IMG/VR virus record: IMGVR_UViG_3300040971_000190
Location: 1-37,026 of that record
DNA: 37,026 nucleotides
Origin: a virus
Lineage: Duplodnaviria; Caudoviricetes
Direction: 5' to 3' (one strand)
The notes below the pieces were generated by a model. That model saw nothing but the letters and a program-made list of their open reading frames with translations. It did no database searches and was not told where the DNA came from. Position numbers and translations under genes: made by a program. Positions within the stretch are counted from its first letter, which is position 1. The number at the start of each line of letters is the position of its first letter. Shown one piece after another: positions 7,154-27,537 of this stretch.

Positions 7154-7181
7154 TTGAAATTATGCGAAATGCTGTTATACT
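7154..7181 (+). promoter_or_regulatory. Sigma70-type promoter of cassette 1
   Basis: TTGAAA-16 bp-TATACT with extended -10 TG; homologous to promoter at 26891. Confidence 0.75.
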
Positions 7182-7188
7182 ATGCATA

Positions 7189-7365
7189 GAGACACCAATC
7201 TTGAAATGAGCGCGTTTTGTATTAATACCGCTCCATAATTCAAAATCCTATTGTGGGCAAAGTCCCGTAGTGGCTGCGATTCGCTCAGAGATTGGTGTCT
7301 CCAGCGGTTTATACCACTACGGGATTTTGTCTTAATTTACTTTATTCTCTATAAGGAGACACCAA
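7189..7365 (+). ncRNA. Structured antisense riboregulator leader, cassette 1
   Basis: 19-bp stem 7255-7273/7314-7332; enclosed seed AGATTGGTGTCTCC (7289-7302) is complementary to the 5' end GAGACACCAATCT (7189-7201) and to the RBS GGAGACACCAA (7355-7365). Confidence 0.8.
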
Positions 7366-7683
7366 ATGAAAGACAAGAACGGACTGAGCAAGAAAGATAT
7401 TGAAAACCTGGAACGCCAGGCAGAGGAAGCCAACACCTTTGGTAATTACCCTGTGCAATTTATGCACGAACTGATTGATGCCACGCTGGAAAAGCTGGAT
7501 GCGGTTTGCATGGAAATGGACAAACCGGCGCTATCGAGCGCCATCCGGGATCTGGTGGTCATTGCCGGGATTGCAGAGCGGTTTGCCTGTGATTTCAAAT
7601 CACCGATTGACCAGGTGACATTTGCACAAACCCTGCCGGTATTGGCAAGAACTCTGGTTGCGCTGGGTGAGGTGGATCAATAA
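7366..7683 (+). CDS. Unknown alpha-helical protein, paralog of 27085..27486
   Basis: GNYPVQFMHE...KPAL...IAERFA aligns without gaps to GNLPPQFLHE...VPAL...IAERFA; AAGGAG RBS. Confidence 0.8.
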   Translation: MKDKNGLSKKDIENLERQAEEANTFGNYPVQFMHELIDATLEKLDAVCMEMDKPALSSAIRDLVVIAGIAERFACDFKSPIDQVTFAQTLPVLARTLVALGEVDQ

Positions 7684-7767
7684 CATTTTGGCCCCGTGGC
7701 AAATGGGGTAGATTACGTGAAATGCCCACCCCAACCCCTCCCAGATGGGAGGAGTGTGATGAGAAAG

Positions 7768-7801
7768 AAAGGACCCAGGTTATGAGCCTGGGTCTTTTTT
7801 T
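7768..7801 (+). terminator. Intrinsic terminator of cassette 1
   Basis: GGACCCAGG-TTATGAG-CCTGGGTCT followed by T run. Confidence 0.85.
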
Positions 7802-7906
7802 ATTGATGTTTTTGTGTGTGAAAAATGCATAAATATATTCACTGTGTATATTTTGTGTATATACACGGATATGCAAATATGTTATATTGTTGATGGAGTT
7901 GTGCCC

Positions 7907-8248
7907 ATGGTGGATAAATTCAGTGTTGTAGATCCATTAGGACGTACTGTAACTTGTGATTTATCCAGATGGATGGATCATGTACTTAAACGCAGACGTT
8001 GGGATGAAGAAGCCGGATGGGAAGTTGTTGTTATAAAGGCAATTAGACAACCATTGATGATTTGTAGAGATTCAGGAAGCCCAGAAACTAAAATTTGTTA
8101 TTATTACACACCATCGGTCACAACAAAATATATGGTTGTCTATGTAGAATTTTTACATGATGATAAAAAAGGTGAGTTAGTTACAGCAATTGAGAAACAC
8201 AAAGGAAAATCTGGAGAGGTATTATTATGGCCGTTTTCAAAGACTTAA
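7907..8248 (+). CDS. Putative BECR/RelE-fold ribonuclease toxin-like protein
   Basis: Pattern DPLGRTV..RW.DHV...I.QP..I..D...YYY...KYMVVYV...LVTA...K.GEVLLW resembles PBECR-type proteins that pair with DUF2283; GGAG RBS before 7907. Confidence 0.55.
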   Translation: MVDKFSVVDPLGRTVTCDLSRWMDHVLKRRRWDEEAGWEVVVIKAIRQPLMICRDSGSPETKICYYYTPSVTTKYMVVYVEFLHDDKKGELVTAIEKHKGKSGEVLLWPFSKT

Positions 8249-8631
8249 ATACAGCGCTTTTTAAACGATTTTTGAACAAAGAGATTGAACCAACATTGGA
8301 ATTCGATGAAGTGTCTGACGAACTCTTAATTCTCTTCGGCGATTTAAGTAAAAATTATATTGCCGTGGATGTAGACAGTCATCTATCATTGCTTTATTAC
8401 CCTGGCGATAAGGAAGTTATTGGTGTCAGGATTGAAAACTTTGAATATTCTTTTTTGAAGAAATTTCCTGACATTGGAAAGATTTGGTTTGTTCGGGATG
8501 ATTGCAAAGAAGGTCAGACTATTTTCCAAGCCGAAGAAAAGATAGAAGTTCGAAAAGAAGATTTAGCCTGGCGTGTCAGTAAGATGGCATATCCTAAGGT
8601 AGGTACCGGTGGATTATTTGTTTGTGTTTGA
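8227..8631 (+). CDS. DUF2283-like protein (putative antitoxin partner)
   Basis: FDEVSDELLILF...LLYYPGDKEVIGVRIENF resembles the DUF2283 signature; overlaps upstream gene. Confidence 0.6.
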   Translation: MAVFKDLNTALFKRFLNKEIEPTLEFDEVSDELLILFGDLSKNYIAVDVDSHLSLLYYPGDKEVIGVRIENFEYSFLKKFPDIGKIWFVRDDCKEGQTIFQAEEKIEVRKEDLAWRVSKMAYPKVGTGGLFVCV

Positions 8632-8641
8632 CAATAATTGA

Positions 8642-8824
8642 ATAAGTAAAACTTATAATACCCCAATAAATTGGGGTATTTTTTGTTAAATAACTGGCAT
8701 ATCATAAGTAAAACTTATTGATACTGGGGAAAAATAGCCATAAAACAAATATAACTATAAGTAATACTTATGTAAATTGAAGAATATTACCCAGAAATTG
8801 AAACAAACTATAAGTTTTACTTAT
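8642..8824. repeat. Four palindromic ATAAGT-N3-ACTTAT sites
   Basis: Copies at 8642, 8704, 8757 and 8810. Confidence 0.85.
8657..8684 (+). terminator. Intrinsic terminator after the TA-like pair
   Basis: AATACCCCAAT-AA-ATTGGGGTATT then TTTT. Confidence 0.7.
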
Positions 8825-8832
8825 ATTGACTC

Positions 8833-8861
8833 TTGTTAATTTATGCGAAATCTGTTAAAAT
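8833..8861 (+). promoter_or_regulatory. Probable late (lysis/morphogenesis) promoter
   Basis: TTGTTA-17 bp-TAAAAT with extended -10 TG; spacer contains TTATGCGAAA as in cassette promoters. Confidence 0.55.
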
Positions 8862-8980
8862 AATAGTAATCAAGTAAATGATTTTAGCCGGGTCGGACGG
8901 AGGCCCAGCGAAAACGGATTGGGCGCCGGTTCTATCATGGGCACGGCGCCCATTGATTCTTTAACCTCAGGAGGTGTGTT

Positions 8981-9418
8981 GTGGAAGGTACTCAGGATAG
9001 TTGGGTTAGTTTGGTGCAAGCGATATTGATGATTCTCATTACGGTATTGCTGCCGGTGTTGGCCGCATACGCGCGGGTTTTGCTGATGAATAAAATTGAT
9101 CAGGCGAAAGCTAATTTGACCAATGAGCAATACCAGGCAGTCAGCCGGGTGGTTGATGATCTGGTGCGCGCGGCTGAACAATACGATCTGGCGACAAAAA
9201 TAAAACGCGTGGGCAATGAAAAGAAAGCCTGGGTTGTTGGTGAGACACAGCGATATCTTGACTCTGTCAATTTCCCGATCGATACACAATTGATTTTCAG
9301 CCTGATCGAATCATCGGTTTACAACGGTTTTACCCAGCCGGATAAATGGTTGCCTGTAGTGGAAGAATTACCGGAATTACCAGCGGGTACCGATTATGGC
9401 TCCGAAAAAACGACCTAA
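8981..9418 (+). CDS. Holin (LL-H family-like)
   Basis: Single N-terminal TM helix, LVRAAEQ...GNEKK...LIESSV pattern; AGGAGG RBS; upstream of endolysin. Confidence 0.75.
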   Translation: MEGTQDSWVSLVQAILMILITVLLPVLAAYARVLLMNKIDQAKANLTNEQYQAVSRVVDDLVRAAEQYDLATKIKRVGNEKKAWVVGETQRYLDSVNFPIDTQLIFSLIESSVYNGFTQPDKWLPVVEELPELPAGTDYGSEKTT

Positions 9419-9431
9419 CAGGCGCAGACGC

Positions 9432-9893
9432 ATGAGCGAAACATTGATGATCACGCTGATCGGAGTCGCTTCAGGACTGATTACCTCAGTCCTGACTTAC
9501 CTGTTTACCCGCAGGAAAGATAAGGCAGATATCACGGATAAGCTGACGGATACTGCCGGGAAGCTGATCGACAAACTGAATGTGCGCCTGGATGATCTTG
9601 AAATCGAAAACAAGGATTTGCGACAACTCGCAAAACGGATGGATGAGCTTGAGGACGAAAACCGGGATCTGCGAAAAAAAATTGACCAGCAAGATCTGGA
9701 ACTTTCCAGGATCCGCAAGATGGTTGGCGACCTGACCGAAACCGTAAACCTGTACCGTGACCGGCTGAATTTCATGGTGATGATCGCGCGTGACATCATT
9801 TGCCAGTGTAAGGATGCCGGAATTATTCCAAAACGTAAACTGCCCGCATGGGCTGAGGAGTTTGCCCAATATGGATGCGACGACTCTGAGTAA
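9432..9893 (+). CDS. Membrane-anchored coiled-coil lysis-cassette protein
   Basis: N-terminal TM helix followed by long heptad-rich region; between holin and endolysin; start uncertain (9396 or 9432). Confidence 0.6.
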   Translation: MSETLMITLIGVASGLITSVLTYLFTRRKDKADITDKLTDTAGKLIDKLNVRLDDLEIENKDLRQLAKRMDELEDENRDLRKKIDQQDLELSRIRKMVGDLTETVNLYRDRLNFMVMIARDIICQCKDAGIIPKRKLPAWAEEFAQYGCDDSE

Positions 9894-10902
9894 TATCCAA
9901 AAAAGAATGCGTTACCCCAACCTGCCTATTCCTTCAGGAGAATTACCTGAGGGTAAAGGCATGTTTTTGTACGTGATCGACAGGATTGGAACAGCGGTAG
10001 AAGTGGCTGAAAAGGCCAAAGCCGCTGGTTTTGACTGGGTTGCGATCAAGGTCCAGAACGGCCGGTTGCTGACCGATGGCGGCAAGGATGAGCGCTATTT
10101 CCTCCAGCTGCCGATCAAGCAAATGTTTCAGGAACTGCAAAAACGCGGCATCCAGGCTATTGGCTGGGGGTATGTTTACCTGAACAGCGATGAGCAGGTT
10201 TTGTATGAAGCTGCCACAACGCTGGATGCCATTCGCCTTTATGAACCGGATGGCTGGATTATCAACGCCGAGGGTGAAGCACGCGGCCAGCATACCCGGG
10301 TACAGCGATATCTTGAAGGCCTGCGTCACTGGCTGAAAAATGATTATGTTCTGGGATATTCAGGATACCGGTTCCCAAAAACATACCAGCCGGATTATCC
10401 GATCAAGCAGTTTGCCACATTCTGTAATTATGCGGTTCCGCAGGTGTATTGGGTTGGAGCACATAACCCAGGTGAGCAGCTGGACCGGTGTCTGGCAGAA
10501 TATTTCGAACTGGACGCACTGTACGGAACACGCACAACGATCATCCCCGCGGGTGCGGCTTATCCATCCGGGAACTGGAAACCGAGCGTTACCGAACTGC
10601 GTTTGTTCTATACAGCCGTAAAGTCTCACCGGCTGCCGGGATGGACGTATTGGGAATGGTACTACGCCAAAAACGAACCGACCTGGTGGGCAGAGATTGC
10701 CAGCCAGATTGCCGATGAGGAAAACCCGAGCGGGGATTATAAGGCGCTCCTGTTGGAGTGGTTTGCCTTTTTAGGAATGGAATCTACCCGGATTGAAGAC
10801 GCTACAGAACAGGTTTTGCAGATGGCCGAAGATTTACGGGCTTATACGGCAGAAATTGAAGCCAAACGTAAACAGATTGAGGACCAACTGAAGCATGGAT
10901 AA
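9871..10902 (+). CDS. Probable endolysin, TIM-barrel glycoside hydrolase (GH25-like)
   Basis: FDWVAIKVQNG, GWGYVY, WIINAE, PQVYW motifs; position after holin; GAGGAG RBS before 9871. Confidence 0.65.
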   Translation: MDATTLSNIQKRMRYPNLPIPSGELPEGKGMFLYVIDRIGTAVEVAEKAKAAGFDWVAIKVQNGRLLTDGGKDERYFLQLPIKQMFQELQKRGIQAIGWGYVYLNSDEQVLYEAATTLDAIRLYEPDGWIINAEGEARGQHTRVQRYLEGLRHWLKNDYVLGYSGYRFPKTYQPDYPIKQFATFCNYAVPQVYWVGAHNPGEQLDRCLAEYFELDALYGTRTTIIPAGAAYPSGNWKPSVTELRLFYTAVKSHRLPGWTYWEWYYAKNEPTWWAEIASQIADEENPSGDYKALLLEWFAFLGMESTRIEDATEQVLQMAEDLRAYTAEIEAKRKQIEDQLKHG

Positions 10903-11578
10903 AGACGTGCTTTCCCTTCAGCAAAACGAAGACGGCGATATTTCGCCGATTTTCGCGTTTGACCAGGTACCAGCGCAGCCGGGAATATTCCCCGGCCTGG
11001 TGGATGAGGAACCCACGCCGCAAGCGATTGCCGATGTGGCCTGTTCCGCTTTGGATGGCCTGTACGAGCGCTGGTATACCGGAGATTTGAAGGAAAAAGA
11101 AAAATTATCGGTTGTGGAAACCGGCTGGTTAGCCATTTACCAGATTGAACGTGAGCGGGGACGTGATTTCCGCGTGGCGGCTTTGATTGCCTGGAAGTCC
11201 TGGCCGGGGGAGAAATGGCCTGCCAACCAGCAGGATCTGGCAAAAATGCTTGGTATGAAATCTGACCGGCGTTTTTACGTGTGGCGCAATGAAGATCCAA
11301 CTATTGATGAGGAAATCAACCTGATCTGGGAACGCATGATGGCCGACCAGGTGAAAGAGGTTGATTCCGTGAACTTGCAGGTTGCCAAACTGGCAGATTA
11401 CAAGGCCACCCAGGAACGCCGCCTGTTCTACCAACGGCGCGGATTGCTGGAAGGTGAAACCCCGGTACGGGTAAATATCAACAATATCCAGAATTTGAGC
11501 GAAGCCGAACTGGATAAACTGATCAATGCCGGAAAAGTACTGGAAGGCAAGTTTGAGGTGACCGATGATGGCGAATAG
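10895..11578 (+). CDS. terS: Terminase small subunit
   Basis: HTH-like QQDLAKMLGMKSDRRFYVWR; C-terminal LSEAELDKL; directly upstream of terL. Confidence 0.65.
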   Translation: MDKDVLSLQQNEDGDISPIFAFDQVPAQPGIFPGLVDEEPTPQAIADVACSALDGLYERWYTGDLKEKEKLSVVETGWLAIYQIERERGRDFRVAALIAWKSWPGEKWPANQQDLAKMLGMKSDRRFYVWRNEDPTIDEEINLIWERMMADQVKEVDSVNLQVAKLADYKATQERRLFYQRRGLLEGETPVRVNINNIQNLSEAELDKLINAGKVLEGKFEVTDDGE

Positions 11579-13223
11579 CGTTACCGAAAAACAGCATGAA
11601 ATTTTGCAGTTAAAGCAGAAGGCCGAACTGGTACGCGCCGAACGTGAAAAAGCCCGGCGGCACCTGTATGACTATCACCATTACATGCATCCCGAATTTA
11701 TCCGAGCCATCCACCAGGAGCTGATCGCCACAGAGTTGGAAAAGGTTTACCGCTATGTTGAGACCGGCGGCGATGAAGGCACCAGTAAACTGATGATTTT
11801 TGCCCCTCCACAAACCGGAAAGAGCACCATGACCAGCATGGATTTCCCGGCGTGGGTATTGGGTAAACGTCCGGATACGAAAATAGCGCTGACCTCCTAT
11901 GTTTCTACTCTGGCAGAACGCAACAGCCGTAAGGTACGCGATCAGGTAGAAGACCTGAAATTCAACCTTTTGTTTGGTGATCAATCGGTTGTGGATGTGC
12001 CGGTTGAACTGAGCCAGGATTCCCGTTCCGTAGGCGACTGGCTGATTGCCAAGCCGCATGAAGGCGGGGTATTGGCACGCGGTGTAGGCGGCGGTTTGAC
12101 CGGTTTTACCCAGGACATTATTGTTATTGACGATCCGTTCAAGGATCGTAAAGACGCTGAATCCGAAGGACGCCGTGAAGACGTATGGGATTGGTATGCC
12201 TCTCAGATTGTTACCCGAATTCGGCGCGGCGTAGCACAAATATTGATGCATACGCGCTGGAATAATGACGATTTGGCCGGAAAGTTATTAAAACAAATGG
12301 CTAAGCAGTCTGAGCGCAAACACTGGAAAGTGCTCTTTATTCCTGCTCTGGCATTGAACCGACCTGACGCTTTGCCAACGGCTGGCGGCAATGAAGTTCT
12401 ACCAACCACCGCAGAAAGCCCGGAAGAGGCATTGGATTTACTGGACAGCCTGGACCGGTACGCCAAAGACAGCGATGAGACGCGGCGTTTCATGGAACGC
12501 GGGGTTTACCTGCCTACGGAAGACCCACTGGGCAGGGAACCGGGAGAATCGGTCAATGAAGAAATGTATCCGGTTGAACAACTGACGGACAAACGGGAAA
12601 CAATTGGAGAGCCAGAATTCGCGTCGGTTTACCAGCAGATGCCAAAAACAAAGTCCGGGCAGATGTTCCCGCGTGAAAAGATAAAAATCTTACCCACGTT
12701 GCCAGCCGGATGCGTATTTATGCGCTATTGGGATAAGGCCGGTACAGCAGGCGGCGGCGGTGCAAAATCATCCGGGGTTTTGATGGCCAAGACACCGGAA
12801 AAGCGTTATGTCGTTGTAGATGCTATTGCCGGGCGATGGTCCATATCAGACCGTAACAGCCAGATTGTCAACACAGCGGTCAGCGATAAAGCCAAGTACG
12901 GGATTATACCCACCTGGCTGGAACAGGAACCGGGATCAGGCGGCAAGGAAAGCGCGGAGATCTCCGTTATTGAACTGGCCGGATATGACGTCCATACCGA
13001 AACAATGAGCGGCCAGGGAGATAAAACCCTGAGAGCCGAACCGTTTGCCGCACAATGGCAGGTTGGCAATGTGGATTTACTGGTAGGGGATTGGAACGAA
13101 CTGTACCTGAAAGAACTTGAAGCATTTCCCTTCGGAACCATCAAGGATTTAGTTGATGCCTCTTCCGGAGTGTTCAATAAACTGGCTTTGATGAAGCCGA
13201 AACGCGAATCGAGGATTTACTAA
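11565..13223 (+). CDS. terL: Terminase large subunit
   Basis: Walker A PPQTGKS, Walker B IIVIDDP, HTRW.DD coupling motif, nuclease YWDKA and DLVDA. Confidence 0.95.
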   Translation: MMANSVTEKQHEILQLKQKAELVRAEREKARRHLYDYHHYMHPEFIRAIHQELIATELEKVYRYVETGGDEGTSKLMIFAPPQTGKSTMTSMDFPAWVLGKRPDTKIALTSYVSTLAERNSRKVRDQVEDLKFNLLFGDQSVVDVPVELSQDSRSVGDWLIAKPHEGGVLARGVGGGLTGFTQDIIVIDDPFKDRKDAESEGRREDVWDWYASQIVTRIRRGVAQILMHTRWNNDDLAGKLLKQMAKQSERKHWKVLFIPALALNRPDALPTAGGNEVLPTTAESPEEALDLLDSLDRYAKDSDETRRFMERGVYLPTEDPLGREPGESVNEEMYPVEQLTDKRETIGEPEFASVYQQMPKTKSGQMFPREKIKILPTLPAGCVFMRYWDKAGTAGGGGAKSSGVLMAKTPEKRYVVVDAIAGRWSISDRNSQIVNTAVSDKAKYGIIPTWLEQEPGSGGKESAEISVIELAGYDVHTETMSGQGDKTLRAEPFAAQWQVGNVDLLVGDWNELYLKELEAFPFGTIKDLVDASSGVFNKLALMKPKRESRIY

Positions 13224-15265
13224 TGAATTTATTTGATCGTTTCCGCTTAACACTGGCGAAGGGCATCAAGGCCAGTACGAACCTGACATTTATGCCGGAG
13301 TGGTACCGCTATTCAATTGCGCCACTGGCTTTCCGGGCCCTGATCATCCAGGGATATAAAAAGAATTCGGCTGTTTTTGCCTGCGTTACAGCGCTGGCAT
13401 TTGGTTTTCCTGAACCAAAACTGGATGTATATAAAGAACTGCCGGATGGCAGCACAGAAAAAGACCTGAAAAACAAACGGCTGCGCCAGTTATTGCTAAA
13501 ACCAAACCGCAGCATGAGCCAGGTTGAATTCATGCAGTTTTGCGTGGTATATGCTTCCCTGGGTGGTGAGGTGCTGATCTGGAAAGAGCGCAATGAGACT
13601 GGCGACGTGATTGGCCTATGGCCGTTTACCGTGGATGTGATCACTGCGATTCCTTCGACTGATACATCCAAAGGGCTGGTTGACCATTATGAATTGAACA
13701 ATGGGGAAGGCGCACCGCTAACTATTCAACCCAGGGATATCATCCAATGGAAGTGGATGGTTGACCCGCTGCGACCGTGGCGCGGTATGGGTGCATTGGA
13801 AGCCGCCTGGCAGGATGTGGCCAGCGACAACGAAGGCACCAGTTACATGTATTCTTTGCTAAAAAATAACGCGGTGCCACCGGTTGTGATTACGCTGGTA
13901 CAGGGCGACGAACTGACAGAGCCAAAAGCCAAACGGCTGAAGAAGCAATGGATGCAGCGTTATGGCGGCGCAAACCGGGGCATGCCGGTATTTTTGGAAG
14001 CGGGTATGACCGTTCAAAAAATGGCAATGAACCTGGAAGAGATGGCCTTTGAAGTGCTCAAAAACGTACCTGAAACGCGGATCTGCGCTGTCTTTCGGGT
14101 GCCTCCGGTAATCGCTGGTGTGAATGCCGGATTGAAACGATCGGATTATGGCGATAAGCATGCCCGGCGTGGATTTGTTGAGGACACTTTGGCATCCCTA
14201 TGGCGCCAGTTCTCTGCCGAAATGGAAAGCGGCTTGCATGAGGATTTTTACGGCGATTGGATTTTGCAATTTGACCTGTCTAAAGTGCGTGCTTTGCAGG
14301 AGGATGAAAGCCAGGTATGGACGCGGGTTACCCGCGCATGGCAGGCCGGATTGATCAAGCGATCGACCGGAAAGCGGATTCTTGGAATCCAGGTGGATGC
14401 TGAGGATGAGGTTTACTTTACGGATTTCTACGCGCTTCAGGACCCTAACGCCAGGGCTAACGATGGCGCGGAAGCCGAAAGCGGAAAACGCAAAACGAAG
14501 GCAAGAAAAGCGGATGTAACTGCGCTGATGGCCTCCCTGCGCGCCAAACGCGAAAGCACTACCCAGTCGATGATTCCGGTTGTGGAAATGTTTTTCTCAG
14601 ACCTGGCAGAAAAAATTGTGGCCCGGGCTGAAAACGAAAAGTCGTACCGCAAGGAAATTGGGATTACCGTAGAGGATTTGTTTGAGGATGAAGATTGGTC
14701 TGAATTATTAGAGGTCAATAAACGATTCATTCTCAATCTTTTGAGATTGTCCTGGGGTGATTGGAACACGATGCTGGATAGCGAAATGGCATTTGACCAA
14801 ACCGATCCGGCGATTACCCAAGCGCTGAACAATTCCGGAAGCCAGATCAAGGATATTGAACAAACCACAAAAGAAGCGGTCCAGGATTTGCTGAAGCATG
14901 CCAATGAAAACGACTGGTCAATTGACCAACTGGTACGCGGTGATGAGACGCACAAGGGATTGCGGGATCTGGTTGAACAAACCTATGAAGGACGCGCTGA
15001 AAATATAGCCCGCTGGGAACTTGGCCATGCACAAAACAGCACCAGCCTGGAACGCTACCAGGGCAGCGGTTTAGAAAAAGTTATGGTGCTGGATAACGGT
15101 TTTGACAACAGCAATGAAAACTGCAAATGGATCGACGGACAAATCAGGTCCCTGGCCTGGTGCGAAAGCAACCATCCGGGAGAAGGCCCGAGCGGCATTA
15201 AGAACCCATTGCAGCATCCGCGGTGTGTAAGGGCGTACGCGCCTTATTTTGATGATGAGGAATAG
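13223..15265 (+). CDS. HK97-family portal protein fused to a Mu gpF/SPP1 gp7-like minor head domain
   Basis: N-terminal portal motifs (NSAVFAC, GMGAL, RICAVFRVPP); C-terminal RAENIARWE...HPRCVRAY. Confidence 0.88.
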   Translation: MNLFDRFRLTLAKGIKASTNLTFMPEWYRYSIAPLAFRALIIQGYKKNSAVFACVTALAFGFPEPKLDVYKELPDGSTEKDLKNKRLRQLLLKPNRSMSQVEFMQFCVVYASLGGEVLIWKERNETGDVIGLWPFTVDVITAIPSTDTSKGLVDHYELNNGEGAPLTIQPRDIIQWKWMVDPLRPWRGMGALEAAWQDVASDNEGTSYMYSLLKNNAVPPVVITLVQGDELTEPKAKRLKKQWMQRYGGANRGMPVFLEAGMTVQKMAMNLEEMAFEVLKNVPETRICAVFRVPPVIAGVNAGLKRSDYGDKHARRGFVEDTLASLWRQFSAEMESGLHEDFYGDWILQFDLSKVRALQEDESQVWTRVTRAWQAGLIKRSTGKRILGIQVDAEDEVYFTDFYALQDPNARANDGAEAESGKRKTKARKADVTALMASLRAKRESTTQSMIPVVEMFFSDLAEKIVARAENEKSYRKEIGITVEDLFEDEDWSELLEVNKRFILNLLRLSWGDWNTMLDSEMAFDQTDPAITQALNNSGSQIKDIEQTTKEAVQDLLKHANENDWSIDQLVRGDETHKGLRDLVEQTYEGRAENIARWELGHAQNSTSLERYQGSGLEKVMVLDNGFDNSNENCKWIDGQIRSLAWCESNHPGEGPSGIKNPLQHPRCVRAYAPYFDDEE

Positions 15266-15275
15266 GAGGCCTGTT

Positions 15276-19289: not shown

Positions 19290-19711
19290 GCCTGATCAAT
19301 CCGGTTGAAGTGGTAATTAATTGGTTTCTGGCCAATGCCGCCAGTTTTGGCGTTGGTACGCGCGTGGCCGGCCAGCATCGTTTTGGCACGGAAAACGCCT
19401 GGACTCCAGGCCAGCGCTGTATTACGGCTCGTATGGATGATGCCGAACTGAGCAATTATGTCCCGCTGCATGCGGTACGTTTGGAAGTGCGTTTTTATGG
19501 CGCCAGCCAGGCAGACGCGGCGGCGATGTGGATGGCCATGCTGCCATTAGCCAGAGCGGTACGACGCAACGCTATCAGTACAGATCTGGGCAATGCATTA
19601 CTGCACAGTTTAGTGCAGTCATCCGGGCCATCCATGCTATACGATCCGGAGATCAACGTTGATTATGTGCTGATGTTCTGGACCGGAATCATCGGAGAGA
19701 ATTCGATATGA
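19286..19711 (+). CDS. Tail terminator
   Basis: Synteny before major tail protein; 141 aa. Confidence 0.65.
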   Translation: MSLINPVEVVINWFLANAASFGVGTRVAGQHRFGTENAWTPGQRCITARMDDAELSNYVPLHAVRLEVRFYGASQADAAAMWMAMLPLARAVRRNAISTDLGNALLHSLVQSSGPSMLYDPEINVDYVLMFWTGIIGENSI

Positions 19712-19899
19712 AACAGGTAGATAGTGAAAATAAGGCTTTTACGCCAGGCGGTGACAACAAAGGCACCGTAAAGGTCAAGCTGAAAGAAAATCGCGCAATT
19801 GCCGGTAAAAAACCGGGCGATATTGTCGTTGTCTCTCCGGCCTATGCCAGAGAATTAATACATTCGGGTTATGCCGAAAAGGTGGTGAATGATGGATAG
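19708..19899 (+). CDS. Small protein resembling ribosomal L9 N-terminal domain
   Basis: KVKLKENRAIAGKKPGDIVVVSPAYARELIHSGYA; coupled to neighbours. Confidence 0.55.
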   Translation: MKQVDSENKAFTPGGDNKGTVKVKLKENRAIAGKKPGDIVVVSPAYARELIHSGYAEKVVNDG

Positions 19900-20473
19900 T
19901 TTACAAATTTTGGTTGGAGCCGGGAAGTTGTATATGGCTCCGTTGGCCACTGCGTTCCCTTTAGTCGATGCCGCGCCTGCCGTGGCATGGGTGTTCCTTG
20001 GTGAAACAGATGGCGGTGTAACCGTTACCAAAAAACAGACCGTGGATGTACACCGGGTAGATCAGTTTACCGGTCCGATCAAAGCCACACGGTCTGAAGA
20101 GGATGTGGTTATTGAAACCAGCCTGGCCGTGATGACGCTGGAAAATATGGCGGATGTCATTGGAAATGCGGTAGCAGATACCGCGCCAGGCGCAGGAACT
20201 GCCGGTTATCGCAAACTGGGATTGACCAGCGGTTTTGATGTGGATGAGCATGCATTTCTTTTCCGTGCTGATTCCCCGTATCTGGCTGGAAAATATGCCC
20301 AGTATGAACTGCCAATTGGTGTGTTCAACCAGGATGAAGTTGGCATGGAATACGTCAAGGATGGAAAAACATTGATGCCGATCAGCATTCTGGCGCTGGT
20401 AAACCCAAGTGCCGCTACCGAAGACGAGCAGTTTGGCCGTCTGGTAGCGCAAGATGCCCTGCCCACAGGATAA
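19889..20473 (+). CDS. Major tail tube protein
   Basis: ILVGAGKLY...WVFLGETDGGV motif; synteny. Confidence 0.85.
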   Translation: MMDSLQILVGAGKLYMAPLATAFPLVDAAPAVAWVFLGETDGGVTVTKKQTVDVHRVDQFTGPIKATRSEEDVVIETSLAVMTLENMADVIGNAVADTAPGAGTAGYRKLGLTSGFDVDEHAFLFRADSPYLAGKYAQYELPIGVFNQDEVGMEYVKDGKTLMPISILALVNPSAATEDEQFGRLVAQDALPTG

Positions 20474-20479
20474 ACAAAA

Positions 20480-20878
20480 ATGACAACCGAGAAACCCACA
20501 AAAAAATTGAATTTGGATGAGATCTTCGGCGTTGATCGACCGATATTAATTGAGTTGAAAGGCGTCCAGTATCCCTTGCTGCGGCCGGAGTCCATGCCAG
20601 CGGAAAGGATTTTGCGCTGGGAACGTATGGAAGAGGGTATGCGGCAAATCTCCAAAAGTGAAATTGACGATGAAACTAAAGCCGCGAAACTGGAGGCGGT
20701 TATCGTTGATTTACTGGAGATGGTTTGCGGAACACCAAAACTGCCGGTACATGAAATGTCGTTTTTGATGAAGACCACGGTTTTGGAATTTTATACCAGC
20801 GAGATTGGTGCTGTAAAAAACGCACCAGCTCCTCAGCCGGAGAACTTGCCGACTGGGGAGACGTCTTCGCCGAGTTAA
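20480..20878 (+). CDS. Tail assembly chaperone (gpG-like)
   Basis: Between tail tube and tape measure; in-frame slippery heptamer near the 3' end. Confidence 0.8.
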   Translation: MTTEKPTKKLNLDEIFGVDRPILIELKGVQYPLLRPESMPAERILRWERMEEGMRQISKSEIDDETKAAKLEAVIVDLLEMVCGTPKLPVHEMSFLMKTTVLEFYTSEIGAVKNAPAPQPENLPTGETSSPS

Positions 20879-21162
20879 TGTATTGGTGCGGCCTGGGTTT
20901 CTCGGATCTGGCCTCCATGCCGATGGCAACCGTTCAAGTGATTTACGAGCGGTTGCCACGGCTCAAGGCAGAGCATGAACTTATGTTGATTGAGGCAAAC
21001 AGCGTTGTCAGTATGAAGGAATCCGATCGCAGATCGGTTATGCAGCGCCTGATGTTAGAGATCAGCGGCGAACCCAGGATCAAAGCCAGAGTAGCCAGTC
21101 CGGATGAATTGGCAAGAATCGGCATCAAAGTGGTAGGAATTGGAGTGGAAAGGATCATGTAA
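20815..21162 (+). CDS. Tail assembly chaperone extension (gpGT-like) via -1 frameshift
   Basis: A-AAA-AAC at 20815-20821; -1 frame open to 21162 and includes ORF 20878..21162. Confidence 0.75.
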   Translation, partial: KKRTSSSAGELADWGDVFAELMYWCGLGFSDLASMPMATVQVIYERLPRLKAEHELMLIEANSVVSMKESDRRSVMQRLMLEISGEPRIKARVASPDELARIGIKVVGIGVERIM

Positions 21163-22964
21163 TGGGACTTTTTGGAGGAGATGCATCACTAGGCGCTGCC
21201 ATTTTGAAACTGGGTGCTGATCAGAGCCAGTTGGACCAGGACATGAATAAAGCCCGGTCCGGGGCGTTAGGCGTGCTCAAAAATATGGCATCCGTAGCAG
21301 GTGGGATTATCTCTGCGGATTTGATTATGCGCGGGGTAAAAGCAGTTATCGGCTTTGGCAAAGAAGCCGTTCTCTCCGCTGGCGACGCCATGGAAACTAT
21401 GGGCAAGTTTGAGGTTTCCTTTGGAGATGCGGCCGGAAGCGCACAAAAAAGCCTGGAAGAATTTGCCAGTGCGGTGGGTAGAAACAAATATGAACTGATT
21501 GAAATGGCTGCCAACCAGGGGGCAGTTTATAAATCGCTTGGTCTTGGTGAAAAAGCAGCCGCGGATTATTCCACCAAGCTGTCTCAACTGGCTGTGGATG
21601 TTGGTTCGTTCAATAATGCAAAATCTGAGGACGTATCCAACGCATTTACCAAGGCGATGACCGGAGAATTTGAGTCTCTAAAAACGTATGGTATTGTGCT
21701 CAATCAAACCATGCTTCAGGAAAAATTGCGCAGCATGGGCATTACCGAAAATATCAACAAGGTAGATCAGGCAACCAAGGCAGAAGCCATATATTCTCTC
21801 TTGCTGGAGCGCACCAGCGACGCGCAGGGGGATGCTACACGTACCAGCGGAAGTTTTGCGAACCAGATGCTGGCACTCAAGAGCCGCCTGGAAGAAGCAA
21901 AAACAACCATCGGTTTACAGTTGCTGCCAGTGTTAACTCCCATGCTGGGAAAATTCAATGAGATGGCGTCCACCGTTTTGCCGCAGGTGATTGCAGGATT
22001 TGGTAATTTCGCCTCCTGGTTGGAGATTGTGATTACCGATGGCGACTTGCTGAATGATTACCTGTTGAATATGATTCCACCGTGGCTGAAAGATGAAATT
22101 TATGGTTTGGGAACGGCGGCTTCGAATTTGCAATTGGCATTCCAGCAGTCCTGGCCGATGATCCAGGGGCATGTAAAAGCGTTTGCGGATTGGTACCAGG
22201 CCAACGTGCAGCCAACGGTTGAAAATTCGACCAATAATATTAAGGACATTCTCAACCAACTGGCTATTTTCTGGAAAAACCATGGCGATGAAGTCATTCA
22301 GATCCTGACGGTGGCGTTCGAGATTATCACTGTCACCATCGGTGGGGCAATGAACCTCATCACCGGTCTGGTTTCTGCAGGTATGCAAGCAGCTTCCGGG
22401 GATATGGAAGGTGCCAGTCTGACCATGAGAAATACCTGGACAACCTTCATGAATTCAGTCCTTTCAATTACCGGTACCAATATGACAGAATTCAACAAAG
22501 TTTGGGCTGGTAATTGGGAAATGGCAAAAATTATTGTAGATCAGACGATGGAAAATATTGCCAGAACCCTGGTTGGGTTTGTGGTGAAATTTTATCTGGC
22601 GGGTCAGAACATTATCAATGGGTTGATCAACGGTATAGAAAGCCGCCTGGCAGCGTTGAAGAGTGTCATTGCGGATGCAATGCGGCTGGTGATCCGGATT
22701 GTTGAAATAACGATGAATATGCAGAGTCCATCAAAAGTGATGGATCAAAAAGGCGCGTATATCATGAGCGGTCTGGAAAACGGGGTACGTAAAAACACCT
22801 CACGTCCAGTCAATGCCATGCGTGATTCGATGAATGCCATCCTCAATACCGCGACCAACAGCATCACCAAGAAGACGGATTACAACATGATTGCACAGTA
22901 TCCGTATCAAAGCCCGATCAGTCTGATGGATCAGGTCAAAATTATGAATTTATTGGAGGCATAA
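21162..22964 (+). CDS. Tape measure protein
   Basis: 600 aa, Ala/Gly-rich helical, periodic W/F residues, MQSPSKVM motif. Confidence 0.92.
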   Translation: MGLFGGDASLGAAILKLGADQSQLDQDMNKARSGALGVLKNMASVAGGIISADLIMRGVKAVIGFGKEAVLSAGDAMETMGKFEVSFGDAAGSAQKSLEEFASAVGRNKYELIEMAANQGAVYKSLGLGEKAAADYSTKLSQLAVDVGSFNNAKSEDVSNAFTKAMTGEFESLKTYGIVLNQTMLQEKLRSMGITENINKVDQATKAEAIYSLLLERTSDAQGDATRTSGSFANQMLALKSRLEEAKTTIGLQLLPVLTPMLGKFNEMASTVLPQVIAGFGNFASWLEIVITDGDLLNDYLLNMIPPWLKDEIYGLGTAASNLQLAFQQSWPMIQGHVKAFADWYQANVQPTVENSTNNIKDILNQLAIFWKNHGDEVIQILTVAFEIITVTIGGAMNLITGLVSAGMQAASGDMEGASLTMRNTWTTFMNSVLSITGTNMTEFNKVWAGNWEMAKIIVDQTMENIARTLVGFVVKFYLAGQNIINGLINGIESRLAALKSVIADAMRLVIRIVEITMNMQSPSKVMDQKGAYIMSGLENGVRKNTSRPVNAMRDSMNAILNTATNSITKKTDYNMIAQYPYQSPISLMDQVKIMNLLEA

Positions 22965-22966
22965 AC

Positions 22967-23851
22967 ATGGCACTTAGTTGGACTTTGGACGGTGTGGAAT
23001 ACGACCTTGAAAATGGTGAACTTTGCTACCACCAGGGCAATGCCGGGTTTGGTATGGCGCCATTCCACCGGCTTGAGGAGCGCGGACCATTGCAACACGG
23101 GGTTACAGACCGGGGTTACCGCCTGGATGCGCGTACCATTCAACTGGCTTTAGCGTTATTTGCACACACCAGAGAGGATTTGTATATCAAGAGAAATCAG
23201 ATCCTGGCTATTTTTCAGCCGTTGGAGGTTGCAGGTACGCTGAAATCGACAGAGGGCACCCGGGTGCGCTGTATCGATTGTTATGCCCAGGGTGGCGGGT
23301 TAGCTTTTTTGACCAGTGATCGCAAGGGATTCTGGCAAAAGGCAGCGGTAATTTTAAAAGCGGATGACCCAACCTGGTATAACCCGGATGGTAAAGCCGT
23401 GACATTCTCTCTCTCCGGCGGTGGGTCCGGGACACCGGTTCCGACACCGGTGCCAACCAGCGTTGGTGCATCGACGATCAATGAGTCTTACACGATTGAT
23501 TACAGCGGTACGGCTCCCTCGTTTCCGCATCTGATCCGGTTTACCGGACCGATCACAGATCCGGTACTGATCAACAATTCGACAGGTGATAAGCTGGATT
23601 TCACCGGTACAACCATCGTGGACGGCGATTATTACGACATTGATCTGCGTTTCGACAAAAAAACCGTAGTCAATGCGGCTGGGGTAAATAAAGAGCATTT
23701 ATTGAGTGATGATTCCAGCATTACTACCTGGAATATTGAACGCGCACCGGTTGCGCCAGGTGGTCAGAACTCGATCACAGCCACCGGAAGCGGGGCAAAC
23801 GCCAATACAAAAATAGATATTTCATATTATGAACGGGATTCAGGAGTATAG
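22967..23851 (+). CDS. Distal tail protein (Dit)
   Basis: Follows tape measure; LKADDPTWY and GPITDPVL motifs. Confidence 0.8.
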   Translation: MALSWTLDGVEYDLENGELCYHQGNAGFGMAPFHRLEERGPLQHGVTDRGYRLDARTIQLALALFAHTREDLYIKRNQILAIFQPLEVAGTLKSTEGTRVRCIDCYAQGGGLAFLTSDRKGFWQKAAVILKADDPTWYNPDGKAVTFSLSGGGSGTPVPTPVPTSVGASTINESYTIDYSGTAPSFPHLIRFTGPITDPVLINNSTGDKLDFTGTTIVDGDYYDIDLRFDKKTVVNAAGVNKEHLLSDDSSITTWNIERAPVAPGGQNSITATGSGANANTKIDISYYERDSGV

Positions 23852-23853
23852 TC

Positions 23854-24855
23854 ATGGCAGAAAAAAGTTATTTATGGACAACCGGTGGTGCCGGTGATGG
23901 ATCGGCCACCTACAGCCGAGCGGATTGGTCAAAAATTGTACAGATCGTGGCAGCCTGCCTGGCGCAGATTGGTATTGCACCGAATGCTTTGAACGCCTGT
24001 GCCGGATCTATCCCGGCTGCCAACACCGTGCGCGTGGCCAGCGGTATGGCGATTGTGGACGGTATATCGTATATCAGTGACGCCAATGTGGATGTAGCTA
24101 TTCCATCCGCGGTGGGTGGTGGCAATACACGAATTGACCGGGTAGTTTTGCGGGCCAACTGGACAGCACAGACCGTGCGCGTTACCAGAATTGCAGGAAC
24201 AGACGCGGCCACTCCGACCGCACCGGCATTGACGCAGACCAGCGGAACAACCTATGACGTTCCTCTCTTCCAGGTAACGGTAAACACTTCCGGAACGGTG
24301 ACGATCACCACAGATGAGCGCCTGATGGCGCGCGTGCAAACAAACGGGATTACCGATGCCAATATCACGGCGGCTAAGCTGGCGACAGATGCTGTGGAAA
24401 CTGCCAAGATAAAAGATGCCAATGTAACAGCGGTAAAACTGGCAACCGATGCGGTAGAGACTGCCAAAATAAAAGATGCCAATGTCACGTTGGCAAAACT
24501 GGCAGCCGATTCGGTGGATGACACGAAAGCCGGGAACAGGATTGCTCAGTTTTACCGGCGCCAGGGTGGCAGTTCCAGTAATTGGATAACCAGTGGAACA
24601 ACTACTTATACACCTACAGCAGTTCGTGCTCAGATGGGCATTGCATATTTAGCAACGACAGGGACTGAGACTATAACTTTCCCAGTTGCATTCTCAAACG
24701 CGCCGATAGTTTTGGCGTGTGCATATAATCCGTCACAGCCAATGGTGGTAAGTGTTTCCAATGTTTTAGCGACAGAGTTTAGCATAACCCGTCATAACTT
24801 GTCAGGTTCCCAAATGGCAGGCGCAGTAACCTGGATTGCTATAGGACCGGAATAA
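23854..24855 (+). CDS. Baseplate/tail fibre protein with 20-aa repeats and C-terminal lectin-like domain
   Basis: RIDRVVLR and YDVPLFQV baseplate motifs; DANVTAxKLATDAVETAKIK repeats; TITFPVAFSNAP...WIAIG C-terminus. Confidence 0.75.
   Translation: MAEKSYLWTTGGAGDGSATYSRADWSKIVQIVAACLAQIGIAPNALNACAGSIPAANTVRVASGMAIVDGISYISDANVDVAIPSAVGGGNTRIDRVVLRANWTAQTVRVTRIAGTDAATPTAPALTQTSGTTYDVPLFQVTVNTSGTVTITTDERLMARVQTNGITDANITAAKLATDAVETAKIKDANVTAVKLATDAVETAKIKDANVTLAKLAADSVDDTKAGNRIAQFYRRQGGSSSNWITSGTTTYTPTAVRAQMGIAYLATTGTETITFPVAFSNAPIVLACAYNPSQPMVVSVSNVLATEFSITRHNLSGSQMAGAVTWIAIGPE
24355..24527 (+). repeat. About three tandem 60-bp coding repeats
   Basis: GATGCCAAT units start at 24355, 24415, 24475. 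Confidence 0.85.
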
Positions 24856-24856
24856 G

Positions 24857-25960
24857 ATGGCTAACGATTTTCGCATCGATCTGTTCTCTCCGGCCGGGGT
24901 GCGTTTTGCGCAGGTCAACCGCTTTACTGCGCTGGCATTTCGAAGTGAAGTAAATTGGGCGGGCCGACTGACGGCCCGCTTCAACGCAGCCGATGCCGTT
25001 GTTTCGCAGTTGGAAGATAAAAGCCATGTGGAACTGTACTGGCGGGATAAGGCGCTCTCTCCCACCTGGATTAAGTTGTTTGGTGGAATCTACCGCAAAC
25101 GCCATTTTGAGCAGCAGGACACTAAGGTGTTTGAGCTGACCGCGTTGGACTATAAAATTATGCTGGCGTATAGGGTGAATGCGTTCTATGCCAACCTGTC
25201 CAATAAGACAAAATTCATCGGTGTGGCGGCTGAAACGATTATGAAAACGCTGGTACAGTACAACCTGACCAGCAGCGCAACCACTGTAAATGGCAGGCTA
25301 AGAGCTGGAACCAATTGGCCATCCACAGTGATCAGTTTGCAGGCTGATGCCGCTGGCGGGAATGCGCTGGATTGGTACTGCGCTCAGGTGACCATCCTGG
25401 AAAATTTGCGCGATTTAGCGCTGATTTCCGGGGGAGATTTTGACCTGATCAAAACTGGCACGAATGCATTTCAATTTCGCTGGTATTCCGGTCAGCGTGG
25501 CACAGATAAGCACACAACCGTTATATTCTCTGTTGCTCGGGGTAATATGGGGTCACCAACCTATGATCTGGACCTAAGCCAGGAGTTTACATCCGGAATT
25601 ATTGGCGGTCAGGGAGAGGACAGCGACCGGGATTTTGCAACAGCGACCGGGGCCAATTACGCAGCCGGGAATGATATAGAAACATTTGTGGCGGCCACGC
25701 AAATAGAAAAAGGCAACCTGGCAGGTTTGGCCGACGCTGGTGCAAAACGCCTGACAGAATTGCAGGCGTATGACGTGTTTGGATTTGATATTCTTCAAAC
25801 GCAGAATACACAGTTTGGTGTGCATTATGGACTGGGTGACCTGGTGAGCGTTGTCAATCCGTTTACGGATGTAGCCAGTACACTGAAGGTCTGGGCTGTC
25901 AATGGCGAATTGCAGGATACAGGAATGACTAAATTGAGCGTGGAGGTAGGTACGCCATGA
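24857..25960 (+). CDS. Baseplate hub/minor tail protein (ReqiPepy6 Gp37-like)
   Basis: GGQGEDSDR and FGVHYGLGDLVSV motifs; synteny. Confidence 0.75.
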   Translation: MANDFRIDLFSPAGVRFAQVNRFTALAFRSEVNWAGRLTARFNAADAVVSQLEDKSHVELYWRDKALSPTWIKLFGGIYRKRHFEQQDTKVFELTALDYKIMLAYRVNAFYANLSNKTKFIGVAAETIMKTLVQYNLTSSATTVNGRLRAGTNWPSTVISLQADAAGGNALDWYCAQVTILENLRDLALISGGDFDLIKTGTNAFQFRWYSGQRGTDKHTTVIFSVARGNMGSPTYDLDLSQEFTSGIIGGQGEDSDRDFATATGANYAAGNDIETFVAATQIEKGNLAGLADAGAKRLTELQAYDVFGFDILQTQNTQFGVHYGLGDLVSVVNPFTDVASTLKVWAVNGELQDTGMTKLSVEVGTP

Positions 25961-26706
25961 ATGAATATGAGGCGATAGCACAGAAAATAAGCTCGCTCCA
26001 GGCAAGAATTAAAGAGCTTGAATTGCGGCCTGTTCCGGTTACGTCAACATATATTTTTGATACAGATCCATGGGTGTATGTGGCAGCCGATCAGTTCAAA
26101 GTGGTTGGCAAAGATGTTAGAAGCCGATTCACGACTGGAACAAAAATCAGGTGTTTTAATTCGGCCACAAAATATTTCACTGTGTTAAGTGCTGCGTTTG
26201 GCACAGATACGACGGTAACCTTGACTGGTGGATCGGATTATGCTCTGGCAAATGCCGCAATCAGCGCCAATTATTACAGTTATGTATTCCCGCATGATTT
26301 TCCTGCGTTGTTCAGCTATTCGCCGATATGGACAGCGGCAACCACAGGCCCGGTTTTGGGTAATGGTACGCTCATCGGACAGTTTCATATTAATGACAGA
26401 AGTTTGCGCTGCTGGGGTGCTTTGGTTATAGGATCAACTACAACGCTTGGCTCGGGAACCTGGTCAATTTCAATTCCGGCTGCGTGCATCGTGCAACCCA
26501 GCGTACAGTTTCGTTCTCTAGGAAATTTCTGGATCAATGATGTCAATTTGAGCGCAAACAGGCGGGTTGGCTCTGTCAGTGTTGTACGTTATCAAACTGT
26601 AATGAACACGTTTTTTAGCGGCACTCAATCAGTAATTAATGCAACTGCACCATTCGCGTGGGAGGATGGAGATACTCTTCAGTGGGATGTCACTTACCCG
26701 ATCTAA
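25957..26706 (+). CDS. Tail fibre/receptor-binding protein
   Basis: N-terminal coiled coil, Thr/Gly-rich beta C-terminus (GNGTLIG, GSTTTLGSGTWSISIP); last tail gene. Confidence 0.65.
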   Translation: MNEYEAIAQKISSLQARIKELELRPVPVTSTYIFDTDPWVYVAADQFKVVGKDVRSRFTTGTKIRCFNSATKYFTVLSAAFGTDTTVTLTGGSDYALANAAISANYYSYVFPHDFPALFSYSPIWTAATTGPVLGNGTLIGQFHINDRSLRCWGALVIGSTTTLGSGTWSISIPAACIVQPSVQFRSLGNFWINDVNLSANRRVGSVSVVRYQTVMNTFFSGTQSVINATAPFAWEDGDTLQWDVTYPI

Positions 26707-26711
26707 AACGA

Positions 26712-26811
26712 CTATAATACCATCTGGCCACGGCAGGGAGGGATGATGCATCGGTAACGCGCCATTTCATTGCTCCGGAGCAGGACCCTGTCTGTGGCCG
26801 TGGTATTATAG
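26712..26811 (+). ncRNA. Orphan stem-loop RNA unit A
   Basis: CTATAATACCA/TGGTATTATAG plus GGCCACGGCAGGG/CCCTGTCTGTGGCC stem; loop carries CATTTCATTGCTCC, the complement of GGAG-7 nt-ATG. Confidence 0.6.
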
Positions 26812-26875
26812 AAATGTCCGGGTGGAAGAAATTGCTAAGAGTAGATCGCTCATGCAGTTTTCCACCCGGGCATTT
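26812..26875 (+). ncRNA. Orphan antisense RNA unit B, homologous to cassette 2 regulator
   Basis: AAATGTCCGGGTGGAA..AATTGCT-AA-GAG-TAGATCG-CTC-AT-GCAGTT-TTCCACCCGGGCATTT has the same layout as 26991-27059. Confidence 0.7.
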
Positions 26876-26890
26876 GTTTTAAATTGGTGC

Positions 26891-26918
26891 TTGACATTAT
26901 GCGCAAACTTGTTAGAAT
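26891..26918 (+). promoter_or_regulatory. Sigma70-type promoter of cassette 2
   Basis: TTGACA-16 bp-TAGAAT with extended -10 TG. Confidence 0.8.
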
Positions 26919-26925
26919 AGTGATT

Positions 26926-27084
26926 GAGTAGTCAGCTCAATAAAGCGGTTTTTTTTGTTAACTGCCACATAATCTTATATAATTGTGGGTAATTGCCCCA
27001 GATGGAATCTGAATCGCTATAGAGCTGACTACTCCGGCGGTTGTCCATCTGGGGCATTTATCTTAATCAAAAAGGAGTAGTCAA
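26926..27084 (+). ncRNA. Structured antisense riboregulator leader, cassette 2
   Basis: 20-bp stem 26987-27006/27044-27063; seed GAGCTGACTACTCC (27022-27035) complementary to 5' end GAGTAGTCAGCTC (26926-26938) and RBS GGAGTAGTCA (27074-27083). Confidence 0.8.
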
Positions 27085-27486
27085 ATGAATAAGCTTACGG
27101 AAAGTCAGAACGTGTCTAAAGGCCAACAGGCCGAATTGGAGCAAGAATCAGGCAATTTACCGCCACAATTTTTGCATGAAATTGTAGGAATCGCTTTAGA
27201 CAACATCCAGGCCGCGGCAGTTGAGCTGGATGTGCCCGCTTTGGGTGATGCGGTAAAGAGCGCGGTGGCTATCACACAAATCGCGGAGCGCTTTGCCTAC
27301 GGTGATAAATCCGATGTGGATATGGCGGAAGTGGCCAAGCAAGTGCCCATTCTGGCCTGGTCATTGACCCACATGGATGAACAGATCGATGATGGTCATA
27401 TTGTCTTTGAGGATGATAAACAATCGGCGAAATACGATGTCAACAAAACGCCGCGTGAAAACATGGACAATATTGTCAAAATCTAA
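27085..27486 (+). CDS. Unknown alpha-helical protein, paralog of 7366..7683
   Basis: Shared GNxPxQFxHE, PAL, IAERFA, KSxxD and PxLA motifs; AAGGAG RBS. Confidence 0.8.
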   Translation: MNKLTESQNVSKGQQAELEQESGNLPPQFLHEIVGIALDNIQAAAVELDVPALGDAVKSAVAITQIAERFAYGDKSDVDMAEVAKQVPILAWSLTHMDEQIDDGHIVFEDDKQSAKYDVNKTPRENMDNIVKI

Positions 27487-27504
27487 TTTGTAGAAAATAA
27501 AGCG

Positions 27505-27537
27505 AAAGGGCAGGTGATGAGCCTGCCCTTTTTATTT
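27505..27537 (+). terminator. Intrinsic terminator of cassette 2 (possibly bidirectional)
   Basis: AAAGGGCAGG-TGATGAG-CCTGCCCTTTTT. Confidence 0.85.

Follow-up and report, generated by a model that had tools for sequence, protein, structure and literature searches.

Two differently coded copies of a candidate antisense-RNA lock on a small protein in a tailed phage genome

The DNA stretch analyzed here, the 37,026 nucleotides (nt) of IMG/VR record IMGVR_UViG_3300040971_000190 (Duplodnaviria, Caudoviricetes; hereafter the window), carries two copies of one cassette, recognized by sequence inspection at 7154-7801 and 26891-27537. In both, a promoter is followed by a 5' target, small hairpins, a long hairpin that is unbranched and carries a seed at its apex, a ribosome binding site (RBS) matching that seed, and a cargo gene. 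A third copy was found in a related phage (L126). Judged from its sequence, the cassette very probably is a sequence-coded RNA lock with the logic of the phage RNAs C4 and CI. The explanation that best covers the whole, to which we give slightly less than an even chance, is a self-silencing lock on a small protein, the cargo being most likely an antirepressor-type immunity breaker. Every component that an earlier note on this DNA had claimed for both cassettes was found where it had been placed:

7154-7181, plus strand: promoter of cassette 1, with -35 TTGAAA, a 16-nt spacer and the extended -10 TG-n-TATACT; the spacer holds the box TTATGCG-n-AA (7160-7169)
7189-7212, plus strand: upstream target of cassette 1, made up of 13 nt complementary to the seed (7189-7201), which lie at the 5' end predicted for the transcript, and of TGAGCG (7207-7212), a possible pairing partner for the inner helix on its 5' strand
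7208-7256, plus strand: small leader hairpins of cassette 1, the first (7208-7233) weak, the second (7233-7256, CATAAT/ATTGTG) invariant in all three copies
7255-7336, plus strand: putative antisense RNA 1, an unbranched long hairpin with inner helix TCGCT/AGCGG, seed (7289-7302), U-rich 3' strand (7325-7332) and TAAT tail
7355-7365, plus strand: RBS target 1, an 11-nt seed complement spanning GGAG and the spacer
7366-7683, plus strand: cargo gene 1, 105 amino acids (aa), isoelectric point (pI) 4.6, four predicted helices, no family
7765-7801, plus strand: terminator-like hairpin of cassette 1
26891-26918, plus strand: promoter of cassette 2, with -35 TTGACA, a 16-nt spacer, the box (26897-26906) and the extended -10 TG-n-TAGAAT
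26926-26950, plus strand: upstream target of cassette 2, with a 13-nt seed complement (26926-26938) and AGCGGTT (26944-26950)
26944-26988, plus strand: two small leader hairpins of cassette 2
26987-27067, plus strand: putative antisense RNA 2, a long hairpin with inner helix TCGCT/GGCGG, seed (27022-27035), U-rich 3' strand and TAAT tail
27074-27083, plus strand: RBS target 2, a 10-nt seed complement just 10 nt past the stem base
27085-27486, plus strand: cargo gene 2, 133 aa, pI 4.4, a paralog of cargo gene 1
27504-27532, plus strand: terminator-like hairpin of cassette 2

The long hairpins were much more stable than their shuffled counterparts (z = -7.5 for copy 1 and -5.6 for copy 2; 0 of 200 shuffles equally stable), and their outer stems start with GGG at the 5' end, the site at which RNase P matures C4. 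The same was true of the hairpins behind the genes (z = -6.2 and -5.7; 0 of 200). Their terminator loop TnATGAG was present in both window cassettes, as the earlier note had described, and no terminator follows the L126 gene directly. The two small hairpins it had pointed out were located as well; pairing in the first is weak, at 81% of cells, and the second, with 6 of 6 pairs invariant, lends no covariation support. In DNA contigs of one sample, possibly the source, there were no variants in cassette 1 and no joints skipping either cassette.

Within the 37 kb window, on both strands, the longest complement of each long hairpin beyond its own stem was its own 13-nt 5' target. The RBS complements were 11 nt (copy 1) and 10 nt (copy 2) long, the latter being exceeded by two unrelated 11-nt matches elsewhere in the window. 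For none of the three leaders did any of 5000 dinucleotide shuffles attain the 5' match; the RBS match was attained by 1, 3 and 1 of 5000. When only the spacer was shuffled and GGAG kept fixed, the RBS match was reached in 140, 15 and 16 of 5000. Seed-target pairing exceeds chance. Among 51 chosen gene starts of the window, more than seven bases matching a seed occurred only at the cognate RBS.

L126, found through a profile search with the cargo protein, has the same gene order as the window phage and 35-60% protein identity over six neighboring genes. Its cassette occupies the slot of cassette 1, as a positional counterpart. No part of the leader is missing there, and its seed is a third one, to which both the 5' target (1120-1132) and the RBS (1284-1294) have been adjusted. 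The leaders of copies 1 and 3 (L126) are 72% identical and differ at four seed positions, and cassette 2 is a more distant paralog of the two (58% and 64% identity). In the alignment of the three RNA copies, 94.7% of 133 cells were paired. Two-sided changes were seen in 11 of 45 pairs, nine of them among the 20 outer-stem pairs; this level was reached by 0 of 500 column shuffles, three related sequences being a weak sample. In L126, the lock may gate a short operon, since two further genes follow the cargo gene before a terminator-like hairpin is reached (region 1610-2320).

Plain duplex energies gave a diagonal 3 × 3 matrix of RNAs and targets. Binding energies were also calculated including the cost of opening both partners. 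For the 5' targets, the cognate pairs bound at -15.1, -17.3 and -15.7 kcal/mol, and all six non-cognate pairs at -4.8 kcal/mol or weaker. For the RBS targets, the cognate values were -7.6, -12.8 and -9.2 kcal/mol, with five of six non-cognate pairs at -3.8 kcal/mol or weaker. By these calculations, the three natural seed codes appear mostly orthogonal. The antisense lock proposed in the earlier note draws support from the third seed with its matched targets, the diagonal matrices, the two-sided changes in 9 of 20 outer-stem pairs and the lack of any family assignment; its argument from a YUNR U-turn had to be dropped as a family feature, the motif being absent from the third loop (L126 1226-1233). 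Chance similarity or a decayed duplication would fit the very few relatives found, but the shuffle tests, the compensatory changes, the intact reading frames and the third matched code refute it in substance, and we give it practically no weight.

Folding of progressively longer transcripts suggests how the lock could work. While the RNA is still growing, each of the three leaders had the duplex of 5' target and seed as its minimum-energy fold, with -40 to -45 kcal/mol right after emergence of the seed. A second pairing, overlooked in the earlier note, of leader TGAGCG/AGCGG with the TCGCT strand of the inner helix, can lengthen this duplex to about 20-25 bp. It remained the minimum-energy form until 7326, 27054 and L126 1260, after which the long hairpin won. 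The U-rich tracts start at 7325, 27056 and L126 1257, and the fold flips at or near them. In the full leader, the duplex form lay 3-6 kcal/mol above the hairpin form. The leader is therefore modeled as a likely co-transcriptional switch. The pattern is that of an attenuator, with leader-seed pairing as the anti-terminator and the long G+C stem plus U tract (6 U in 8 bases) as a possible terminator; the long hairpin of copy 1 was not called by the terminator scan.

Promoter, targets, hairpin and matched codes in three copies are the part of the proposed mechanism that is seen in the sequence. During transcription, according to the folding, the 5' end of the leader would pair with the seed and the inner-helix strand and keep the long hairpin from forming up to roughly the start of the U-rich stretch, with the result that polymerase would read through and the seed would be hidden from the RBS. 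Some transcripts would refold or end at the U tract and yield, by termination and/or trimming, a stable hairpin RNA of about 80 nt. In trans, this RNA would attach to newly made transcripts at their free 5' end, removing the anti-terminator so that the long hairpin forms, and would also cover the RBS of read-through messages; blocking both sites would amount to an off switch with positive feedback. The small protein would be made briefly on entry into a cell without the matching RNA and be shut off in a lysogen. By the example of P1 and P7, a new seed would escape the RNA of a resident relative, and two differently coded locks would therefore add to immunity and also improve the odds of breaking in.

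Given a lock, action in trans is highly probable. In copy 2, no more than 10 nt separate the RBS from the base of the stem, which is about 30 bp long, and by this geometry the loop would be too near its own RBS to reach it in cis. Two folds and a U tract would suffice for a purely cis-acting attenuator or timer, with no trans-acting RNA and with seed differences due to neutral drift. Yet the RBS follows the seed in all three copies, including the one whose loop cannot easily reach it, and within a core that is conserved in other respects the seed changes fastest, as a specificity code would be expected to do. We consider a cis-only device quite improbable.

The cargo proteins of the two cassettes are 41% identical over 86 aa (E 2e-22). 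A profile search over 1.84 billion representatives returned four members, including the two of the window, and a second one gained only a longer-start form of a known member. Of the two relatives outside the window, one is that of L126; the other, P0003, is encoded on a contig of 93.6 kb. The four distinct sequences are 104-133 aa long, with a pI of 4.3-4.6; they are soluble and acidic, with 18-24 acidic versus 11 basic residues and a grand average of hydropathicity (GRAVY) of -0.06 to -0.35. An AlphaFold2 model built from a 4-row alignment has four helices and a mean predicted local distance difference test (pLDDT) of 86.8.

The protein could not be recognized, as the earlier note had stated: there was no assignment in Pfam, PHROG, NCBIfam or PADLOC, with no match in PHROG or PADLOC and nothing near the Pfam and NCBIfam cut-offs. 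Phmmer returned the query alone, none of 7996 candidates was a longer or fused form, and no relatives were found in cultured phages. Foldseek, a check already proposed for the protein, gave no match to the model at E <= 0.001, and the ESM Atlas no named lead at a useful score. Fold matches to Aqs1 and dCTPase (E about 3) and to uS15 chains (Z 6.9-7.9) were rejected as common helical bundles, the cargo also being acidic, unlike S15. The hit L003 was a chance match. Three minor-tail relatives are without the cassette, and queries with terminase, lysin and small terminase gave no further close phage.

Nor did the RNA fall into a described family. The leader matched no Rfam family, and none related to C4, CI or IsrK at E <= 10. 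The C4 model RF01695 gave no match at E <= 1; 14 control genomes also had none over the cut-off and so provided no positive control. By blastn, neither the 50,697 phage records nor the 72,556 plasmid records yielded a match to the cassette RNA. Four pattern scans found no further copies, the patterns being strict enough for distant members to escape. The first, over 43 of 64 parts, returned at least 119 viral stretches, later ones 33 and 14 viral and 9 GTDB stretches. Of the matches listed in the first scan, 66 distinct ones were folded, and a seed-target match was seen only in the two of the window. An RNA model (R2) found no true member in 47 viral loci of two scans, 4 loci of the first scan, the phages L123-L125, the 9 GTDB loci or the records G001-G003. 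A literature search covering few subscription journals found no paper on this RNA or protein family. The window DNA occurs in only four runs, all from one hydrocarbon metagenome sample that is possibly its source, with no RNA run listed.

The promoter box of the cassettes recurs before the operon for holin, lysin, terminase, head and tail:

8832-8869, plus strand: promoter-like element with the box TTATGCG-n-AA at 8841, the same -10 and a poor -35

The cassette promoters have a good -35, which this element lacks. Its counterpart in L126 (3308-3345) is 92% identical over 38 bp, versus about 67% for matching coding DNA. The pattern TTAT[GA]CG-n-AA-n5,6-TA-nnn-T occurs three times in the window (7160, 26897, 8841), twice in L126 (cassette and pre-holin element) and not in L123-L125. 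On this shared box, the cassettes are likely under the same regulator as the lysis and virion operon. The regulator would be a late activator or a repressor, and the pre-holin element is likely a late promoter or an operator. Candidates for the regulator are the HTH repressor-like protein, the ribbon-helix-helix-like protein (30213), an HTH protein (34856) and the recombinase-like protein (30679). We take the box to resemble the P1 late-promoter box near -22, a likeness for which no source was found.

Related motifs were noted elsewhere. At 35320-35345, in a 385-bp gap before the primase gene, two TTATGCG-containing arms form a palindrome with a 6-bp spacer, and a third half-site lies at 35410-35416. 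The palindrome could be an origin, a recombination site or a strong operator; its geometry presumably resembles that of a tyrosine-recombinase (dif-like) site. A more distant relative, L124, has an inverted pair of TTATGCGACGAATA at 20501 and 20580. A divergent switch region (30110-30377), between the helix-turn-helix (HTH) repressor-like gene and a gene for a 54-aa ribbon-helix-helix-like protein (30213), holds two TTATGTG near-copies of the box and no TTATGCG.

PHROG matches in the window include holin (8981), terminase (11565), portal, protease, capsid (16079), tape measure (21162) and tail genes, and also an HTH regulator (29714-30109, minus strand), two methyltransferases, SSB and primase. 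One of the two DNA methyltransferase genes adjoins cassette 2. The primase-like frame runs off both window ends, and the genome therefore reads as circularly permuted. Integrase-type genes lie at 28477-29424 (minus strand) and 30679-31581, the second being XerC-like and part of an early rightward operon. Beside the integrase (29510-29559, minus strand) lies the 3' half of a tRNA-Val(TAC)-like sequence, with tRNA-like loose ends at 29559; ARAGORN called no whole tRNA there, and the half is probably an attachment site. By its two tyrosine recombinases, the HTH repressor-like gene and the tRNA half beside the integrase, the phage is temperate.

Between cassette 1 and holin lies a slot (7814-8631; L126 2321-3205) whose gene pair differs between the two phages: in the window, neither gene has an assignment, and in L126 a SocA/Panacea-like antitoxin gene stands with a MAG6450-like partner. 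It looks like a defense-gene hotspot. A 210-aa protein (2896-3528) weakly matches the DNA polymerase beta palm (E 0.012), as a stand-alone PolX-like fragment. Short C-rich/G-rich inverted repeats recur in the phage group (7727-7757; L126 2228-2276; after the tail genes in L123 and L124), and we assume a likeness to REP-type elements. A Chloroflexota host is our impression only, from SSB and the repeat motifs.

Concerning the role of the cargo, an antirepressor-type function is ranked first, before anti-defense and then an Icd/Kil-like inhibitor, because P1/P7 heteroimmunity predicts coded, duplicated locks with a constant cargo. The ranking draws on context, is tentative, and leaves the antirepressor somewhat short of an even chance.

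The same lock could instead gate an anti-defense protein, expressed briefly on entry and kept off afterwards so that the lysogen retains its defenses, with new seeds allowing expression despite related prophages. All family members are small, soluble and acidic, the phage has two DNA methyltransferases, one of them beside a cassette, and c4 RNAs are described near STAXI motifs, which lie close to antirestriction genes (PMC2864571). The acidity is moderate, however, no sequence or fold link to a known anti-defense protein was found, and immunity codes explain two copies of one activity more easily than dose does. We regard this role as rather unlikely.

Slightly less likely still, the cargo could inhibit growth, taking the part of P1 Icd or P4 Kil, or be the toxin of a pair with an RNA antitoxin that protects the lysogen through abortive infection or addiction. 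Orthogonal pairs in several copies are typical of type I toxin-antitoxin loci, and the slot of cassette 1 in L126 holds the SocA/Panacea-like antitoxin gene and its partner. In the icd-ant operon of P1, which C4 gates, the first gene is icd, for a division inhibitor, as described in PMC8198154. Against a toxin, the RNA comes from the same transcript and, as a very stable hairpin, would be expected to persist longer than the mRNA, whereas addiction requires the reverse; nor is the cargo a small hydrophobic peptide, as its GRAVY values indicate, or an ASH protein.

Several points weigh against the self-silencing immunity breaker as well. Only three RNA copies are at hand, so that the covariation counts are small and inflated by relatedness, and the RNA of copy 3 binds the gene start of copy 1 at -7.1 kcal/mol, near cognate strength. 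Folding by transcript truncation disregards polymerase footprint and kinetics; the RBS was predicted to be weakly or partly paired in both folds, so an open RBS in the ON state does not follow from it. The cargo matches no known antirepressor family or domain in PHROG, Pfam or NCBIfam, and it is not ASH/Icd (PF10554, no match in the genome). There was no significant fold match, the best structural Z of 7.9 being within the range of common helical arrangements. The cassettes sit in accessory-gene slots, outside the immunity region. Finally, the shared box suggests late or repressor-linked control, which a simple burst on entry leaves unexplained.

A more far-reaching version, which we hold as doubtful, is an independently evolved one-hairpin immunity lock in which the antisense RNA also serves as terminator and which gates a new antirepressor or anti-defense class, with orthogonal copies stacked in a prophage arms race and sharing the lysis/virion promoter box. 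If it is true, one phage factor and one RNA code would jointly decide whether a superinfecting phage breaks immunity. Finding the logic of C4 and CI in a phage lineage whose RNA is simpler and whose protein is unrelated points to convergence or very deep divergence. The three natural seed codes offer a ready test set for lock diversification, and the element a switch that is compact and programmable. Since locks of this kind guard genes that a phage wants expressed at entry alone, the gated protein makes a good candidate for a new family of antirepressors or anti-defense proteins. The small family (three RNA copies, four distinct proteins) limits the weight of these points.

Among known systems, C4 of P1 and P7 is the closest in layout. 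It has three stems, the loops a' and b' and about 77 nt, involves RNase P, and differs in specificity between P1 and P7 by 4 nt, as given in PMC5320573. Here too, a putative RNA of about 80 nt is embedded in the leader of the gene it would control in a temperate phage, complementary sites lie upstream and over the RBS in all three copies, and a few covarying bases would set specificity, 4 nt between copies 1 and 3. Unlike C4 with its two separate antisense loops, all three copies have one unbranched hairpin and one apical seed, which includes the anti-Shine-Dalgarno CTCC. They also differ in lacking an RF01695 match, in a cargo that is neither Icd/ASH nor Ant, and in two coded copies per genome.

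P4 CI RNA is branched in shape. As described in PMC4825925, it pairs with the upstream seqA and the downstream seqC and causes termination; the processed immA RNA of N15 is a relative of it (PMC4488713). As in P4 CI, IsrK/STnc1160 and N15 immA, complementary sites lie upstream and downstream of the RNA, and the upstream target is at the 5' end of the transcript. The fold predicted for the cassettes would allow control by premature termination, which is likely in P4 CI. Unlike in that group, the hairpin ends in a U tract and may itself be the terminator, and the cargo is unrelated. In PMC2864571 and PMC5320573, RNA immunity of the C4/CI type is described from Proteobacteria and their phages, the RNA being branched and preceding genes of the icd/ant type; the former also gives the c4 and c4-a1b1 motifs with their taxa. 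PMC12197685 and PMC3632133 were likewise used for the comparison. Like type I toxin-antitoxin systems, the cassettes have an RNA that would block the RBS of a small gene, in orthogonal paralogous pairs; unlike in these, the RNA is on the same strand, inside the message, and the protein is soluble and acidic, with 104-133 aa, rather than small and hydrophobic. The RNA thus appears to work like P1 C4 and P4 CI but to be a member of neither, being set apart from C4 by the missing Rfam match and the absence of a three-stem, two-loop structure. On present sequence evidence, the RNA and protein families appear to be new, and the regulatory logic is a known one.

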